Shown: piece by piece, positions 3,478 to 56,368 of the stretch | Layout of the letters: the number at the start of each line of letters is the position of its first letter | Numbering within the stretch: position 1 is the stretch's first letter | Source of the DNA: Candidatus Magasanikiibacteriota bacterium | Lineage (GTDB): Bacteria; Patescibacteriota; Patescibacteriia; Magasanikbacterales; UBA922 | Direction of reading: 5' to 3' | DNA: 64,000 nt | NCBI GenBank assembly: GCA_052033375.1 | Contig: JBPOJQ010000006.1 | Location: 24,791-88,790, forward strand | The notes under the pieces: model-generated | What the model saw: only the letters and a program-made list of their open reading frames with translations | The model's database searches: none | Told to the model about the DNA's origin: nothing | Position numbers and translations under genes: made by a program

Positions 3478-4035
3478 TTATTCATCTGCATGGGTATTAA
3501 TCCAAATCTCCTGTTTCTCATGTCCAAATGCTACAAAAATAATATCTGGTTTATTTCTCTGTATTTCATTGATAATTTGTTGATTAATGCGTTTCTCTTC
3601 TTTATTCTTATAGACAATCGCACCGCCCCGGACAAAAAAATTGGGTCCTGGATGCATGCCTGCGACATGCAGTGTCGGGAAGGCTTGCTGGATATAATAA
3701 AATAACTTCTTGAGAGTTTTTGTTTTTCCTGAACCAAGTAGAAAGATTGATTTTTGCTCATGTTCTGCGATAGAGAGAAGCTCAAGCATAAAATCAACCC
3801 CGGTAATCCTATTCAACCTGCCTTCTGAAAACAGGACTAGTCCCCTGCCATCACACAGTGATAGATCAGCAGTATTCAAGATTTCCCGAAATGAATGATG
3901 GCGATATGCGGATACAATCATCTCAGGATTTGGAGTAAAGATACGATGAAGTCGCTCCTCGTGAAGAAACGCCTGCGCTCTGTTTTTTGCCTCATCAATA
4001 GTGACTTCATCAACCTTTACATCGAGGATATGCAT
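3478..4035 (-). CDS. WecB/TagA/CpsF family glycosyltransferase (TagA-like)
   Basis: RIFTPNPEMIV ... LNTADLSLCDGRGLV are motifs typical of the WecG/TagA family. Length is 185 aa. Confidence 0.65.
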   Translation of the reverse strand: MHILDVKVDEVTIDEAKNRAQAFLHEERLHRIFTPNPEMIVSAYRHHSFREILNTADLSLCDGRGLVLFSEGRLNRITGVDFMLELLSIAEHEQKSIFLLGSGKTKTLKKLFYYIQQAFPTLHVAGMHPGPNFFVRGGAIVYKNKEEKRINQQIINEIQRNKPDIIFVAFGHEKQEIWINTHADE

Positions 4036-8085: not shown

Positions 8086-8388
8086 TTATAAATCACCTAA
8101 AAAATCATCATTCAAATCAAGTTGCCCAGGGGTAAACTTGTGGTATGGTTCACCGCTCCCCTGCTCAATCTTTTCTACCACATTTTCAGGAGTACTATAC
8201 GAGAAAATTTGATTGTCGTCAACGATGACGTTTACTGCTTTTTTACATCGATCAATACAGCCACATATGCCGACAGTAGTCTCTGTTCCTACATATTTTT
8301 CTTCCAACACACCGACAATAGCATGGGCGCCCTCTACCATGCAGTCCGCTCCACAACAGACTTCGATTTTTTTAATTTCTTTATTCAT
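8086..8388 (-). CDS. thioredoxin-like [2Fe-2S] ferredoxin family protein
   Basis: CCGADC ... CGCIDRC gives a Cx4C...Cx3C pattern typical of Trx-like 2Fe-2S ferredoxins. It sits at the distal end of the Fe-S assembly gene string. Confidence 0.45.
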   Translation of the reverse strand: MNKEIKKIEVCCGADCMVEGAHAIVGVLEEKYVGTETTVGICGCIDRCKKAVNVIVDDNQIFSYSTPENVVEKIEQGSGEPYHKFTPGQLDLNDDFLGDL

Positions 8389-8396
8389 ATTCAGTT

Positions 8397-8482
8397 GTCA
8401 TCCTGAGCGAAGCGAAGGATCCCTTAAAGAATGTTTGAAATAAAAATTTAGTCAAGGGATTCTTCGCTTCGCTCAGAATGAC
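8397..8482. repeat. near-perfect 29-bp inverted repeat pair (GTCATCCTGAGCGAAGCGAAGGATCCCTT / AAGGGATTCTTCGCTTCGCTCAGAATGAC) separated by a 28-nt AT-rich loop; member of a dispersed hairpin-repeat family
   Basis: Seen directly in the sequence. Related copies occur at 9163-9190 and 56115-56140. Confidence 0.7.
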
Positions 8483-8484
8483 AT

Positions 8485-8757
8485 TTATTCAGTATTTTGT
8501 TCGAATTTAGTCGCTAAGTCTTCCCAATGAGGATTTATAGAATTAATCAACTCCTCTTTTCTGATGCGCTTCCAACCTTTTATTTGTTTCTCCCTTCTTA
8601 TAGCTTCTTCAATATCACTAAATTGTTCAAAATAAACTAATTTAGTACAAGCATATTTCTTCGTAAAACTATCTGCGGCGCCTTGCTTGTGCTCATACAC
8701 CCTTCTCTGCAAGTTATTCGTCACCCCGATATACAGTGTTCCAGAATAACTTGCCAT
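8485..8757 (-). CDS. GIY-YIG nuclease family protein (COG2827/UPF0213-like)
   Basis: MASYSGTLYIGVTNNLQRRVYEHK matches the GIY-YIG motif. Length is about 90 aa. The start is taken at MASYSG; the ORF extends in frame to 8787. Confidence 0.85.
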   Translation of the reverse strand: MASYSGTLYIGVTNNLQRRVYEHKQGAADSFTKKYACTKLVYFEQFSDIEEAIRREKQIKGWKRIRKEELINSINPHWEDLATKFEQNTE

Positions 8758-8790
8758 AATATAAATGTAAAAATTATTCCGCAACATATT

Positions 8791-9087
8791 CTAGACGCCC
8801 ATCGCAGCCCGTAAATCTGGAGGTGCTACCCAAGGCGGATCAAAGGTAACATCAATGTAAACCGCTTCACGCTCGAAACCAAACGACATAATTACTTCCC
8901 GTATCTCATCAGTGAGTTGCGGACCGAAGGGACAAAATGGTGTGGTGTAAGTCATGGTTACTTCAACTCTATTCTGTTCACTATCCACACGAATATCATA
9001 AATAAGGCCCATAGTAACCACATCTACATGGACTTCAGGATCAAAGACCGTCTTTAATTTTTCTAAAATTTGCTCTTTGGTGACCAT
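8791..9087 (-). CDS. sufT: Fe-S cluster assembly protein SufT (DUF59/MIP18 family)
   Basis: VFDPEVHVDVVTMGLIY ... TYTTPFCPFG is the DUF59 signature. It is adjacent to sufC. Confidence 0.8.
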   Translation of the reverse strand: MVTKEQILEKLKTVFDPEVHVDVVTMGLIYDIRVDSEQNRVEVTMTYTTPFCPFGPQLTDEIREVIMSFGFEREAVYIDVTFDPPWVAPPDLRAAMGV

Positions 9088-9162
9088 ACATTATTTATTT
9101 TGTTATCCTGAACGTATTGAGTGATCCCGTGAAGAGTGTTATACGTAAAACCCTCTTTAAGA

Positions 9163-9190
9163 GATTCTTCGCCTACGGCTCAGAATGACA
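9163..9190. repeat. solo copy of the TGTCATTCTGAG...GAAGAATC hairpin-repeat family
   Basis: GATTCTTCGCCTACGGCTCAGAATGACA is the reverse complement of a GTCATTCTGAGCCGTAGGCGAAGAATC-type unit. Confidence 0.5.
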
Positions 9191-9196
9191 AATACA

Positions 9197-9925
9197 CTAT
9201 TTAAAATTATTATACCCACTCTTCTCGACTTCATGTGCCAATTCAGGACCACCACTCTTCACAATATTACCATCAATCATGATGTGAACTACGTCCGGCA
9301 CCACGTAATCAAGAATACGATTGTAGTGGGTAATCAATAGTACTCCAGTTTTCTCACTCTTAAATTTAACAATTCCTTCCGCAACGATTTTCAACGCATC
9401 CACATCAAGCCCGGAATCAGTCTCATCAAGTACCGCATATGTCGGCTCAAGAACCGCAAGCTGGAGAATCTCAGCTCGTTTCTTCTCTCCTCCAGAAAAT
9501 CCCGTATTCACATATCGAGTCGCAAATGCTGGATCCATTCCAAACTCTTTTATTTTTTCTACCAACTTTCGGTGAAACTCAAGAGGATTCACCGTAGCAC
9601 CTTTGAGCGAATTATACGCGAGACGCAAAAAATTAGAAATCGTCACCCCTTCAATTTCTGGCGGATACTGCATCGAGAGAAACAATCCATGCTTTGCTTT
9701 CTCATCTGTAGACATATCGGTCACGTCCACAGCGTCAACAATAATCTTCCCCTCAGTGACGGTATATTTTGGATGACTAAGTAGTGTATTTGCAAGGGTG
9801 GATTTCCCCGAACCATTCGGTCCCATAATCGCATGGACTTCACCTGGCTTAATCTCAAGATTAAGACCTTTTACAATCGGCTTTTCTTCTACTGAAACGT
9901 GTAGGTTTTGTATCTGTAAGCTCAT
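9197..9925 (-). CDS. sufC: Fe-S cluster assembly ATPase SufC
   Basis: MSLQIQNLHVSV...GPNGSGKSTL, plus ABC signature and Walker B. The start is taken at MSLQ; the ORF extends to 9985. Confidence 0.9.
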   Translation of the reverse strand: MSLQIQNLHVSVEEKPIVKGLNLEIKPGEVHAIMGPNGSGKSTLANTLLSHPKYTVTEGKIIVDAVDVTDMSTDEKAKHGLFLSMQYPPEIEGVTISNFLRLAYNSLKGATVNPLEFHRKLVEKIKEFGMDPAFATRYVNTGFSGGEKKRAEILQLAVLEPTYAVLDETDSGLDVDALKIVAEGIVKFKSEKTGVLLITHYNRILDYVVPDVVHIMIDGNIVKSGGPELAHEVEKSGYNNFK

Positions 9926-19126: not shown

Positions 19127-19279
19127 ATATGCGCACAAAAAACACCATCTCATAATATCAAAAATAAGATGCCATGTCATTACTGCTTGAAAAAATAGCT
19201 CGGTTGAGATAAGATGGCACTACATGTCATCCCAAGTGAGGGGTCACACGACGAATCGAGGGATCTCTTGATTAAAAAT

Positions 19280-20200
19280 ATGCCCACAAAAATCGCTTTT
19301 TTCGGAACTCACGAATTTGGAGCAATCATACTCAAATCACTTGCACAGGATGATCGTTTTTTAGTTGATCTTGTGATAACACAACCAGATAAACCGGTAG
19401 GTAGAAAACAAGTACTCACTCCCCCACCAGTAAAAATTTTGGCCGACACATTAGGAATTAAAACAGAACAACCAGAAAATCTCAAAAACTTCCATCTTGA
19501 AAAAGATGAATTCGACGTAGCGGTAACTGCACAGTACGGACTATTGATTCCCTCTCATGTATTTAGCGAAACAAAGCATGGATGTATAAATGTACATACC
19601 TCGCTCCTGCCAAAATATCGTGGCGCATCACCAATTCAGTCAGCACTCATTAATGGAGAAGCAGAAACTGGAGTAACTATTATGGTTATGGACGCGGGTA
19701 TGGATACGGGAGATATCCTGTCACAAGAAAAAATTACAATTAATCCAGACGAAACGTACCCCGAGCTCGATATGAAGCTTGCTAAAATAGGCTCAACACT
19801 TCTCATGAAGACCTTGCCCGATTATATTAATGGAAAAATTATTCCTCAAAAACAGGATGAATCCAAAGTGACCGTGTGCAAAAAACTTTCACGTGATGAT
19901 GGGAAAATAAATTGGAATAACACTACTGAAGAAATTTATAATCTGTATCGTGGTACAAAACCCTGGCCAGGAATCTGGACAACCCTCAATGGAGAACGAG
20001 TGAAATTGCTTGAAATTAAACCAGCACAGGAAAAATTCGATCCGGGATATATACGGTGCAAAGAAGATACTATATTAGTTGGAACCAAAAACGGTTCAAT
20101 CAAAATTGAAAAAATTCAATTTGAAGGAAAACAATCGCTCGACGTAAACGCCTGTCTGGCGGGATATTGGCTCACGCTAGATGCACAAACATGTGAATAA
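19280..20200 (+). CDS. fmt: methionyl-tRNA formyltransferase
   Basis: KIAFFGTHEFG ... HTSLLPKYRGASPIQ ... C-terminal Fmt domain. The start is taken at MPTKIAFF; the ORF starts at 19214. Confidence 0.9.
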   Translation: MPTKIAFFGTHEFGAIILKSLAQDDRFLVDLVITQPDKPVGRKQVLTPPPVKILADTLGIKTEQPENLKNFHLEKDEFDVAVTAQYGLLIPSHVFSETKHGCINVHTSLLPKYRGASPIQSALINGEAETGVTIMVMDAGMDTGDILSQEKITINPDETYPELDMKLAKIGSTLLMKTLPDYINGKIIPQKQDESKVTVCKKLSRDDGKINWNNTTEEIYNLYRGTKPWPGIWTTLNGERVKLLEIKPAQEKFDPGYIRCKEDTILVGTKNGSIKIEKIQFEGKQSLDVNACLAGYWLTLDAQTCE

Positions 20201-40019: not shown

Positions 40020-40090
40020 TCGGGGATCGTCTAATGGTAGGACTACAGGTTCTGGACCTGTGTATCGGGGTTCGAATCCCTGTCCCCGAG
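40020..40090 (+). tRNA. tRNA-Gln (anticodon CUG)
   Basis: Manual fold. Acceptor TCGGGGA/TCCCCGA. D-arm GTCT-AATGGTA-GGAC. Anticodon stem ACAGG/CCTGT with loop TTCTGGA (CTG at positions 34-36). T-arm CGGGG-TTCGAAT-CCCTG. Discriminator G. CCA not encoded. Confidence 0.85.
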
Positions 40091-40098
40091 CTAAAAAA

Positions 40099-40130
40099 AG
40101 AATATCGCCAATTGGATATATTCTTTTTTT
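40099..40130 (+). terminator. intrinsic terminator after tRNA-Gln (GAATAT...ATATTC + T7)
   Basis: Seen in the sequence. Confidence 0.55.
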
Positions 40131-40142
40131 AAGTCAGAGATA

Positions 40143-40261
40143 AAGAGGGATTCGAACGAGGGAAGGGTGAAACCGTGAGGTTTCACTGGACTGAGGAAAG
40201 TACACGAAAACCCGAAGGTTTTCGTGATATGTTCGAATAGCGAAGCGCCCTGTCCCCGAGC
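40143..40261 (+). repeat. tRNA-Gln 3'-end-derived element 1: starts with an inverted copy of the tRNA T-arm/3' region (GAGGGATTCGAAC) and ends with a direct copy of the tRNA 3' end (CCCTGTCCCCGAGC); internal perfect hairpins
   Basis: Direct comparison with tRNA positions 40072-40093. Internal hairpins GTGAAACC-gtgag-GGTTTCAC and CACGAAAACC-cgaa-GGTTTTCGTG. Confidence 0.6.
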
Positions 40262-40306
40262 AAAATATAAATACACCCATATAGGTGTATTTATATTTAT
40301 GATAGT

Positions 40307-40407
40307 GAGAGGGATTCGAAGGACGCGAGAGAAGCCGAGCGTGCGAGGCTTCGGTGCGCAGCGCCCCGGTACCCGAACGGAGTGAGGGGGAATCCCTGTC
40401 CCCGAGC
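40307..40407 (+). repeat. tRNA-Gln 3'-end-derived element 2: same architecture (GAGAGGGATTCGAA ... GGGGGAATCCCTGTCCCCGAGC)
   Basis: 21-nt match to the tRNA 3' end with the TTCG of the T-loop deleted. Internal hairpin GAAGCC-gagcgtgcgag-GGCTTC. Confidence 0.6.
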
Positions 40408-47305: not shown

Positions 47306-48064
47306 TTATGATTTATTCTCATGCTGATCGCAATAATACGCAATTGCATCGCGCATGAATACTGCCAACCCTGGACGAAATTTCTCATAGTATGCAGTAA
47401 ACCGTGGATCCTCTACATACATCTTCCCCAAATTGCGAAACATCTCGTAGCTGCAATCATAAAAGAAATTCACCCCTTCATGACTTTGCTTAATAAGCTT
47501 CTGTACATCAGAGTGTTCAATTCCCTTATCCATCGCGTCAGCAATTGCCTGCGTATGCTTTTTTCCATCTGCTTTTAGTTTTTCCATTTCTTTTTTTGTC
47601 ATCGTACCCACTTTCGCCATACTCTGACGGTACGCGTCGCTATTCCCCCACCGCTCCTTTACTTCATCCTGATACTGTTTTACCTCAGCGTCTTTGAACA
47701 CGTCATACAGTTCCTCATCGTTAATTTTGTGATTATTACTCATAGTTTTAATAGTTTTATTAATTGAATTAATTAATTTTTCAAGTCTCGCCTGCTTTAA
47801 TCGTATTAATTTTTTCTGATCTTTCAGCGCTTCGACTACGCTAAACTGAGGACGATTAAGCATACGCTTGATGTCTTCCAGTGGAAACTCTAGTTCGCGG
47901 AAAAAGAGTATTTGTTGCAAACGAATAAGTTCGGCATCCTCGTAATAACGATATCCATTCTTTTTGATGACCGAGGGCTTCAAAAGACCAATTTCATCAT
48001 AGTAATGAAGGGTGCGAACACTAATTCCTGCCAATTGTGCGAGACTGTGGACGGTATACGACAT
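47306..48064 (-). CDS. MerR family transcriptional regulator with TipAS-like C-terminal effector domain (Mta/TipAL-type)
   Basis: MSYTVHSLAQLAGISVRTLHYYDEIGLL gives the MerR HTH. A coiled-coil linker and a C-terminal roughly 140-aa TipAS-type domain follow. Confidence 0.8.
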   Translation of the reverse strand: MSYTVHSLAQLAGISVRTLHYYDEIGLLKPSVIKKNGYRYYEDAELIRLQQILFFRELEFPLEDIKRMLNRPQFSVVEALKDQKKLIRLKQARLEKLINSINKTIKTMSNNHKINDEELYDVFKDAEVKQYQDEVKERWGNSDAYRQSMAKVGTMTKKEMEKLKADGKKHTQAIADAMDKGIEHSDVQKLIKQSHEGVNFFYDCSYEMFRNLGKMYVEDPRFTAYYEKFRPGLAVFMRDAIAYYCDQHENKS

Positions 48065-56114: not shown

Positions 56115-56140
56115 TGTCATTCCTGCGAAAGCAGGAATCC
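56115..56140. repeat. copy of the TGTCATTCCTG-CGAAA-GCAGGAATCC hairpin-repeat family
   Basis: 9-bp perfect stem. Same conserved flanks as the repeats at 8397-8482. Confidence 0.55.
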
Positions 56141-56150
56141 ACTACAAATT

Positions 56151-56178
56151 AAAAAACCCGGCCAATCCGGGGTTTTTT
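56151..56178 (+). terminator. intrinsic terminator (CCCGG-ccaat-CCGGG + T6)
   Basis: Seen in the sequence. Confidence 0.6.
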
Positions 56179-56368
56179 AATCCTCAATTACTTCGTAGTG
56201 GACAAAATAATATTCGGCTTCGGGGTTTTGTATATATATTCAGTATCTCATTTTCCCCGTCGGCCGCTTTTTTATACCACAGATACTTTTCACAATACAC
56301 AGATTCCACAATACACAAAAGCATCTCATACAACAAAGCGACCATCACAACACTATTTCGCGTTGTGT

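Follow-up and report, generated by a model that had tools for sequence, protein, structure and literature searches.

The 64,000-nucleotide stretch of contig JBPOJQ010000006.1 analysed here (the window), from a Magasanikbacteria-like bacterium of the candidate phyla radiation, contained a gene for a small GIY-YIG nuclease together with short, oriented hairpin repeats. The gene was embedded in a suf operon on the minus strand, in the order sufC, repeat doublet E2, sufT-like gene, 3 nt, nuclease gene, 1 nt, repeat doublet E1, 7 nt and ferredoxin-like gene. E1 occupied the whole gap from the stop codon of the nuclease gene (8485) to the start codon of the ferredoxin-like gene (8388). The locus is probably an Ssn-type system, composed of a small GIY-YIG gene (ssn) and copies of its cognate hairpin motif (SRM). 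The repeat units, the nuclease gene and the host genes next to them were as follows.

8396..8483, no strand: doublet E1, an 88-nt near-perfect palindrome of two inverted SRM units with a palindromic spacer
8455..8483, minus strand: SRM unit E1-R, TGTCATTCTGAGCGAAGCGAAGAATCCCT, forward on the gene strand, 1 nt past the ssn stop codon
8396..8424, plus strand: SRM unit E1-L, TGTCATCCTGAGCGAAGCGAAGGATCCCT
9101..9190, no strand: doublet E2, a 90-nt degenerate palindrome in the sufC-sufT spacer, a direct repeat 71% identical to E1
9162..9190, minus strand: SRM unit E2-R (intact), TGTCATTCTGAGCCGTAGGCGAAGAATCTC
9101..9129, plus strand: SRM unit E2-L (decayed), TGTTATCCTGAACGTATTGAGTGATCCCG, with GTC changed to GTT and the stem broken
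19225..19269, plus strand: solo SRM unit, TGTCATCCCAAGTGAGGGGTCACACGACGAATCGAGGGATCTCTT, with a long insert, in a divergent intergenic region
56115..56142, plus strand: solo NTS-like SRM unit, TGTCATTCCTGCGAAAGCAGGAATCCAC, with an 8-bp stem and a GAAA loop
8485..8787, minus strand: ssn-like gene, encoding a 100-aa single-domain GIY-YIG nuclease (PF01541, E=3e-16, residues 6-75)
8791..9087, minus strand: SufT-like gene (DUF59, FeS_assembly_P; PF01883, E=1.6e-15), host operon context
8086..8388, minus strand: thioredoxin-like [2Fe-2S] ferredoxin-like gene (weak PF01257, below the curated cut-off), host context

Anatomy and number of the repeats

The layout of the unit comprised GTC, a basal stem ATYCT/AGRAT, a variable interior and CCCTT. 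The interior was GAGCGAAGCGA or GAGCCGTAGGCGA in the window and was longer in relatives. In E1-R the GTC, the 5-bp stem ATTCT/AGAAT and the 3' C were all present, and the stem of E1-L, ATCCT/AGGAT, was a compensatory variant of it (C-G versus T-A). The ends of the E1 palindrome were inverted copies of TGTCATYCTGAGCGAAGCGAAGRATCCCT. In E2, the decayed unit E2-L was without a stable fold (-0.2 kcal/mol). Orthologous E2 doublets were located in two relatives, L002 and L003. The original prediction had described the repeat at 9163-9190 as a solo copy; it was instead the right arm of this second full-length palindromic element (9101-9190), which was 71% identical to 8395-8467 in direct register.

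The consensus spacer of E1 and E2 (8425-8454 and 9130-9161) was itself palindromic, AAAGAATGTTTTACGTAAAACATTCTT, with TACGTA at its centre. Therefore, each doublet was one long palindrome and not two hairpins joined by a random linker, which would fit an origin by fold-back synthesis. When folded as RNA, E1 gave -51 kcal/mol (z = -13) and E2 gave -26 kcal/mol (z = -4).

The repeat family was real and far beyond chance. The pattern TGTCATYC..RGRATC gave five intact units in the 64-kb window, E1-L, E1-R, E2-R and the copies at 56115 and 19225, against 0.18 expected, and the exact 26-mer TGTCATYCTGAGCGAAGCGAAGRATC was found twice against 0.00 expected from dinucleotide shuffles of the window. The window total was six SRM units, all of them intergenic. 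A looser first definition (GTC, a 5-bp stem of any sequence, and C) gave 16 units against 12.3 +/- 3.7 in shuffles. Because these whole-window counts were barely above the shuffles, the loose structural definition was retained only for positional tests near genes.

Repeats were present at all the positions where four copies had been proposed, but that description was incomplete, as the set consisted of two doublets and two solo units. The plus-strand unit at 19225-19269 had not been listed. A mechanically called open reading frame (ORF; 19214-20200) overran this unit, but its true start is probably the ATG at 19281 (MPTKIAFFGTHEFG), which places the unit between genes. The ORF from 19281 looked like a methionyl-tRNA formyltransferase gene. 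The stem of the unit at 56115, for which 9 bp had been claimed, was 8 bp long. This unit was located between the stop codon of an ORF (56102) and a terminator-like hairpin (about 56150-56180), and its DNA fold gave -7.8 kcal/mol (z = -4.8).

The nuclease and its motif across phyla

A system of this kind was described in 2025. SsnA of N. meningitidis is a 94-aa single-domain GIY-YIG protein of CDD family cd10448, and its target is the hairpin repeat NTS, CGTCATTCCCGCGMAVGCGGGAATCYRG, in which dRS3 is contained (Chenal et al. 2025, Nat Commun 16:2388, PMC11893778). The enzyme binds just one strand of NTS, and this exclusively as single-stranded DNA, and it cleaves a few nucleotides upstream; it is inactive on duplex DNA and RNA and does not bind RNA (PMC11893778). 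Cutting depends on the three bases that precede the palindrome and binding on the C that follows it, while the identity of the loop is irrelevant (PMC11893778). The family was described as occurring mainly in Pseudomonadati, and 71% of the bacterial homologues had at least one SRM and 42% had SRMs on both sides (PMC11893778). Among literature searches, those that paired GIY-YIG with REP (repetitive extragenic palindromic) elements, miniature inverted-repeat transposable elements (MITEs) or REPINs returned nothing relevant, and the pairing with dRS3 led to this report.

The window locus resembled this description in several respects. The protein was a single domain of 100 aa, close to the about 94-100 aa of the family, without a separate DNA-binding domain. 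In Pfam, besides PF01541, it matched only the related T5orf172 over the same stretch. Residues Y19, R29, H33 and E66 were invariant in a 30-sequence family alignment and Y9 was nearly invariant, and the window protein had all of them, including the presumed counterparts of the catalytic GIY tyrosine, YIG tyrosine and glutamate (Y6, Y17 and E64 of SsnA). The spacing of 47 between Y19 and E66 was the same as that between Y17 and E64 of SsnA; the mapping to the Neisseria numbering is inferred. The motifs were oriented hairpins beginning with (H)GTCAT and followed by the critical C after the palindrome; they adjoined the gene and were also dispersed in intergenic DNA, as in the described genomes, in many of which inverted motifs bracket the gene. 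On the gene strand, a forward unit lay less than 500 bp from the gene at either end: the unit at 8455-8483 followed the stop codon after 1 nt, and the unit at 9162-9190 preceded the start codon by 375 nt. The parts conserved in the window copies and in orthologous loci were GTC, the basal stem and C, and the variable part was the loop. The conserved parts are those that were experimentally critical, and the window feature fits the Ssn description in each point.

The protein had more than 8000 database relatives of about 95 aa with 55-85% identity, from sources that included candidate-phyla-radiation lineages, Chloroflexi, Deltaproteobacteria and Ignavibacteria. Across about 20 phyla, identity within the family was 50-65%. 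A Burkholderiaceae homologue shared 55% identity with the window protein (E=1e-36) and was bracketed by TGTCATTCCCGCGCAAGCGGGAATCCAC, which are NTS-like SRMs of the strict pattern. The search of the PDB matched no Ssn structure, only UPF0213 proteins that were distantly related to the window protein (E = 1e-9 and 4e-6). No meaningful family was returned by the NCBIfam search, and a protein search seeded with a betaproteobacterial homologue and aimed at Neisseria SsnA returned no Neisseria entry. A weak tblastn match to the Ssn C-terminus at 47714-47848 lay within a MerR-type regulator and was spurious.

The association of gene and motif was observed far outside the window. When one genome per species was scanned, the matches exceeded 600, and a set of 80 loci, drawn from about 20 phyla, was retained. 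In this survey a unit was defined as GTC, a perfect stem of at least 5 bp, and C, and was counted within 200 nt of the 81 ORFs of these loci. Whether GIY-YIG genes elsewhere are flanked by the motif was one of the checks proposed with the original prediction, and 64 of the 81 ORFs (79%) had at least one unit. A forward unit was located upstream of 46 ORFs and an inverted unit downstream of 40, and 27 had both, whereas about 6% would be expected by chance for one orientation per 200-nt flank, given the 0.58 units per kb (both strands) counted at distances of more than 1 kb. Most of the retained loci had the architecture 5'-TGTCAT-hairpin ... ORF ... hairpin-ATGACA-3' with lineage-specific stems, and at least six basal-stem variants were in common use across homologous loci. 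Stem pairing was selected: TGTCATxyz was followed by rc(xyz)ATC within 55 nt in 240 of 617 cases, against 34 +/- 5 with permuted triplets. The proposed REP- or MITE-like nature of the repeats, tied to a small GIY-YIG gene, was thus borne out, as homologues in about 20 phyla were flanked by the same motif.

The first sign that the motif generally abuts these genes came from the database proteins themselves. Many of them had N- or C-terminal tails (VIPSEAERSRGIPY, LSFRAKS.., CHPERSEGS, DPSLRSG, DSSLRSE), which were translated flanking SRM hairpins and are gene-calling artefacts. The tailed proteins included P0010, P0012, P0026, P0031, P0049, P0058, P0078, P0096, P0100 and P0106, among others.

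The hairpins might instead act mainly in RNA, as REP-like operon elements for stabilisation, processing or attenuation of the suf mRNA, with the GIY-YIG gene nearby only incidentally. This is improbable. Both doublets are indeed placed between co-oriented genes of one operon and fold strongly as RNA, E1 ends 7 nt from the ferredoxin start codon, and the 56115 unit directly precedes the terminator-like hairpin. However, the association with GIY-YIG genes over about 20 phyla and many genomic contexts would be left unexplained. In addition, the conserved GTC and C are non-palindromic and orient the units, which point in either direction relative to transcription. The hairpins were not followed by a T-tract, and no Rfam family was matched by the repeats: at gathering thresholds Rfam called only the tRNA-Gln in the window, and at permissive settings E1 matched nothing but sub-threshold microRNA-precursor hairpin models. 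Scanning for promoters and terminators gave nothing above shuffles. An intrinsic terminator was rejected, as neither strand of E1 or E2 had a terminator call and the 56115 unit is separate from, and upstream of, its neighbouring terminator-like hairpin. The lack of RNA binding by Neisseria SsnA also speaks against a role in RNA (PMC11893778).

Several points weigh against the assignment to the Ssn system. Strand-specific cleavage of single-stranded DNA was demonstrated for the Neisseria and Wolbachia homologues only, none of them from the candidate phyla radiation (PMC11893778). The published SRM pattern, HGTCWYN(0-2)YYVSBRHN(0-5)WNVSBRGN(0-2)RNCYNB, had no strict match in the window, and hence none on either side of the gene within 500 bp, and it matched the flanks of only 8 of the 90 homologous genes sampled. 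With two substitutions it gave 48 matches, which were both E1 units, the 56115 unit and 45 apparently unrelated sites. The SRM membership of the window motifs therefore rests on the looser structural definition. The layout was also uncommon, as no SRM was located within 200 nt upstream of the window gene and a forward SRM lay directly downstream; 6 of the 81 homologous genes were alike in this, and the commonest layout of the nearest motifs, forward upstream and inverted downstream, was found in 20. Under nearest-neighbour DNA parameters, single E-type units formed weak hairpins of -2 to -4 kcal/mol and did not exceed shuffles in stability. Furthermore, a single-stranded doublet would more likely form one long duplex-like hairpin, and duplex is spared by the Neisseria enzyme.

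With its short basal stem (5 bp) and long interior (11-13 nt, GA-GCGAAGC-GA), the main window motif falls outside the published search definition. Among DNA mini-hairpins, d(GCGAAGC) is a classic case of unusual stability, and DNA also forms stable tandem G·A pairs; for these reasons, nearest-neighbour parameters may understate the stability of the E-type units. The strict NTS, CGTCATTCCCGCGMAVGCGGGAATCYRG, and the dRS3 core ATTCCC-N8-GGGAAT were absent from the window, and the strict NTS pattern gave nothing in the seven homologous loci scanned. The 56115 unit, however, was nearly NTS itself, with a single compensatory exchange in the stem (T-A in place of C-G) relative to the core of the Neisseria repeat, although the flanking bases differed.

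Under the Ssn assignment, which remains the preferred one, the SRM would be an oriented DNA hairpin consisting of GTC, a stem starting with AT (ATYCT...AGRAT, closed by a GCGAAGC-type mini-hairpin) and then C. If it acts like its characterised homologues from Neisseria and Wolbachia, the protein would bind the motif only on a strand that is single-stranded, for example during replication, repair, DNA uptake or transfer. It would recognise the sequence and structure of the stem together with the flanking GTC and C, and would cut a few nucleotides 5' of GTC, with the complementary strand spared. For E1, cleavage is predicted at around 8484-8490 (minus strand) and around 8390-8395 (plus strand). 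The doublet would thus offer one site per strand, and when single-stranded it may favour the long duplex-like hairpin. A candidate role is the restriction of incoming single-stranded DNA that bears the motif, for which there is a precedent in Neisseria, where the Ssn enzyme lowers transformation by NTS-bearing DNA (PMC11893778). Maintenance of a selfish, REPIN-like element is an alternative role that would be compatible with restriction. This biochemistry is taken from the literature, while the repeat anatomy, enrichment, stem covariation and association across phyla given above, and the turnover given below, were observed directly.

Locus history in relatives and mobility

In three Magasanikbacteria-type relatives (L001, L002 and L003), with 73-85% identity in Ssn, the order was sufC, spacer, sufT, ssn, doublet and ferredoxin. 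The layout common to these loci and the window indicates that ssn and its downstream doublet are old in the lineage. The ferredoxin-like gene directly downstream of E1 was syntenic in L001-L003 and in a further relative, L085. In more distant relatives, sufC-sufT-fdx-fer4 was tightly packed without ssn or repeats, and this is the ancestral operon order. Therefore, ssn and the repeats were added to a conserved operon, of which sufT is a regular member rather than cargo.

The sufC-sufT spacer was variable among close relatives. The flanking genes of L001 and L002 were 97-98% identical; however, the spacer contained an SRM doublet in L002 and an unrelated palindrome, GAACACGGAT..ATCCGTGTTC (3606-3688), in L001. 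A variant of the L001 palindrome, GAACACAGAT, occupied the same spacer of L085 (406-484), and this alternative palindrome was absent from the window. Two families of hairpin elements thus alternate at the sufC-sufT spacer, with the SRM doublet in the window, L002 and L003. L085, which was nearest to L001 and L002 (86-87% nucleotide identity), lacked ssn, and the SRM doublet in its sufT-ferredoxin spacer belonged to a different stem variant. This is the presence/absence polymorphism that had been sought. Parsimony favours loss or replacement of ssn in L085, because L003, the window and L001/L002 all carry it. The original prediction had the repeats bracket the GIY-YIG gene and sufT. Copies were indeed present on both sides, but the pair delimits no single cassette, since the two spacers change independently in relatives and sufT is part of the conserved operon. 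A role of the repeats as recombination targets was likewise unsupported; the demonstrated activity in the family is strand-specific cleavage of single-stranded DNA. Any mobility of the gene or of the repeats is hypothetical.

One hypothesis, possible though doubtful, is that the gene and repeats form an active, selfish element like an insertion sequence (IS), in which SRM-ssn-SRM is autonomous and the doublets are non-autonomous MITE/REPIN-like derivatives that Ssn mobilises via single-stranded intermediates. It is compatible with the Ssn-type system and adds mobility to it. In 20-27 of the 81 loci the ORF was located between inverted SRMs, as in the loop of a doublet. An example is Gracilibacteria L004 (3940-4320), where the homologue lay between inverted SRMs in another core operon, that of ATP synthase, after the b-subunit gene. 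ORF-less convergent doublets were common at other loci in many phyla (83 pairs, median spacer 35 nt). In Nitrospirales L013 (900-1810) and Ruminococcaceae L017 (2150-5490), ORF-less doublets were arranged in tandem around ssn with a period of about 120-140 nt, and these arrays resembled BIME/NIME-type mosaics. The identical 26-mer was present in loci of the candidate phyla radiation, Firmicutes, Verrucomicrobia and Acidobacteria, and the exact 26-nt E1-type unit was present in at least 50 viral or proviral contigs of IMG/VR (L132-L181), mostly as single copies; an ssn gene was located near the 26-mer in 1 of these 50 loci. The different sufC-sufT elements between the near-identical flanks of L001 and L002, the doublet without ssn at the corresponding site of L085 and the operon of distant relatives without ssn and repeats also agree with movement, and the Ssn authors pointed to an IS-like NTS-ssnA-NTS architecture, which they compared with REP/RAYT and for which they proposed domestication (PMC11893778).

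Against such movement, no target-site duplication was visible at E1 or E2. The flanks, ..TTCAGT/E1/TTTATT.. and ..TTATTT/E2/AATACA.., had only a single T/A that extended the palindrome. The gene and both doublets were syntenic among relatives with only 73-85% nucleotide identity, which argues that they were stable over long periods, and the parsimonious event in L085 is a loss of ssn and not a gain elsewhere. A 100-aa nuclease of this type has no known strand-transfer or ligation activity, and neither excision nor insertion has been shown for Ssn. Moreover, inverted SRMs would be cut on opposite strands, whereas the chemistry of IS200/IS605 is on the same strand. Slightly more tentative is the broader proposal that Ssn and its motifs are a still active class of single-stranded-DNA mobile elements, driven by the 100-aa nuclease, whose motif range extends far beyond the published pattern and which colonises intergenic sites in essential operons, including those of candidate-phyla-radiation bacteria with their reduced genomes.

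The position of the gene next to the motif could also suggest that ssn is a free-standing, homing-type endonuclease gene, which inserts 5' of a forward SRM, with the repeats as pre-existing targets. The stop codon of ssn abutted the 5' edge of the forward SRM in the window and in L001-L003. Between the stop codon and TGTCAT there was 1 nt in the window; L001/L002 had 2 nt at this point, and the TGTCAT of L003 overlapped the 3' end of the ORF. Among the 22 ORFs of the 81-ORF survey whose nearest downstream unit was forward, 7 had the GTC at -10 to +3 nt from the ORF end, and this insertion point corresponds to the cut position reported for the family (PMC11893778). L085 has only 6 nt from the sufT stop codon to TGTCAT. 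Homing is nevertheless hardly probable. The commonest architecture, with a forward SRM upstream and an inverted one downstream, is different, and the L085 doublet is a different SRM variant and not a simple empty site, in a locus where loss of ssn is the parsimonious event. Furthermore, the characterised homing GIY-YIG enzymes have separate DNA-binding domains and cut duplex DNA.

Relation to known repeats and significance

The window locus also shared features with other repeat systems. As in REP/REPIN-RAYT systems, short intergenic hairpin repeats occurred in inverted doublets that form a long hairpin (E1 and E2), with a single associated nuclease gene flanked by them. REP/REPIN repeats are recognised as single-stranded DNA, which would be a further likeness to the Ssn motifs by analogy. 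However, the conserved 5' tetranucleotide is different, no transposition chemistry is known for Ssn, and no IS200/IS605-like Y1 (HUH) transposase adjoined the window repeats, where the associated gene was GIY-YIG. The ATTCC..GGAAT-type stem resembled that of Neisseria dRS3 and NIMEs, and NIME repeats flank short intergenic segments and variable genes, whereas the host and the motif variant differ. The doublets were like MITEs in their length of about 90 nt, terminal inverted repeats, lack of an ORF, intergenic position and polymorphism between close relatives, but they have no DDE transposase partner and each terminus is a small oriented hairpin. Compared with the Ssn/NTS system itself, the differences were the host from the candidate phyla radiation, the form of the motifs as whole palindromes of about 88 nt, the position of the gene in a suf operon, and the number of copies, six units in 64 kb here versus hundreds per Neisseria genome.

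Some observations concerned neighbouring or separate features. The sufC ORF as listed (GTG 9985, 262 aa) overlapped a NifU-like gene. Its start is probably the ATG at 9925 (MSLQIQNL..), because SufC of relatives has 242 aa. Downstream of the tRNA-Gln gene (40020-40091), a hairpin-rich stretch at 40092-40400 contained a second copy of the tRNA 3' end, CCCCGAGC (about 40254-40261), and two GAGGGATTCGAA units (about 40146-40158 and 40309-40322) that resembled minus-strand tRNA T-arms. ARAGORN and Rfam made no call in 40092-40400. A core shared with the repeats had been proposed in this tRNA-Gln-derived unit. The match, AGCGAAGCG at 40239-40247, was a lone extra 9-mer (0.17 expected in the window) without GTCAT, stem or 3' ATC, and was ruled out as an SRM copy. 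The stretch is unrelated to the SRM family.

The core idea of the original prediction was right. As the link between gene and hairpin was published in 2025, the finding mainly confirms a rediscovery from raw sequence, and the locus is a new example, in a bacterium of the candidate phyla radiation, of a system already described. The locus adds modestly to this knowledge, with a motif variant not captured by the published pattern, the doublet form, the location in an operon and the polymorphic alleles. The published SRM pattern misses most of the motifs in the sampled sub-clade, with 8 of 90 genes matched versus 64 of 81 by the structural definition. Because of this, the range of Ssn target sequences is larger than catalogued, which is relevant to single-stranded-DNA tools. 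The motifs are commonly whole palindromic doublets, and the replacement and loss at the same spacers in close relatives provide concrete alleles for the question of mobility. Bacteria of this radiation probably depend on DNA uptake, and here the system sits inside the core Fe-S assembly operon of one of them.

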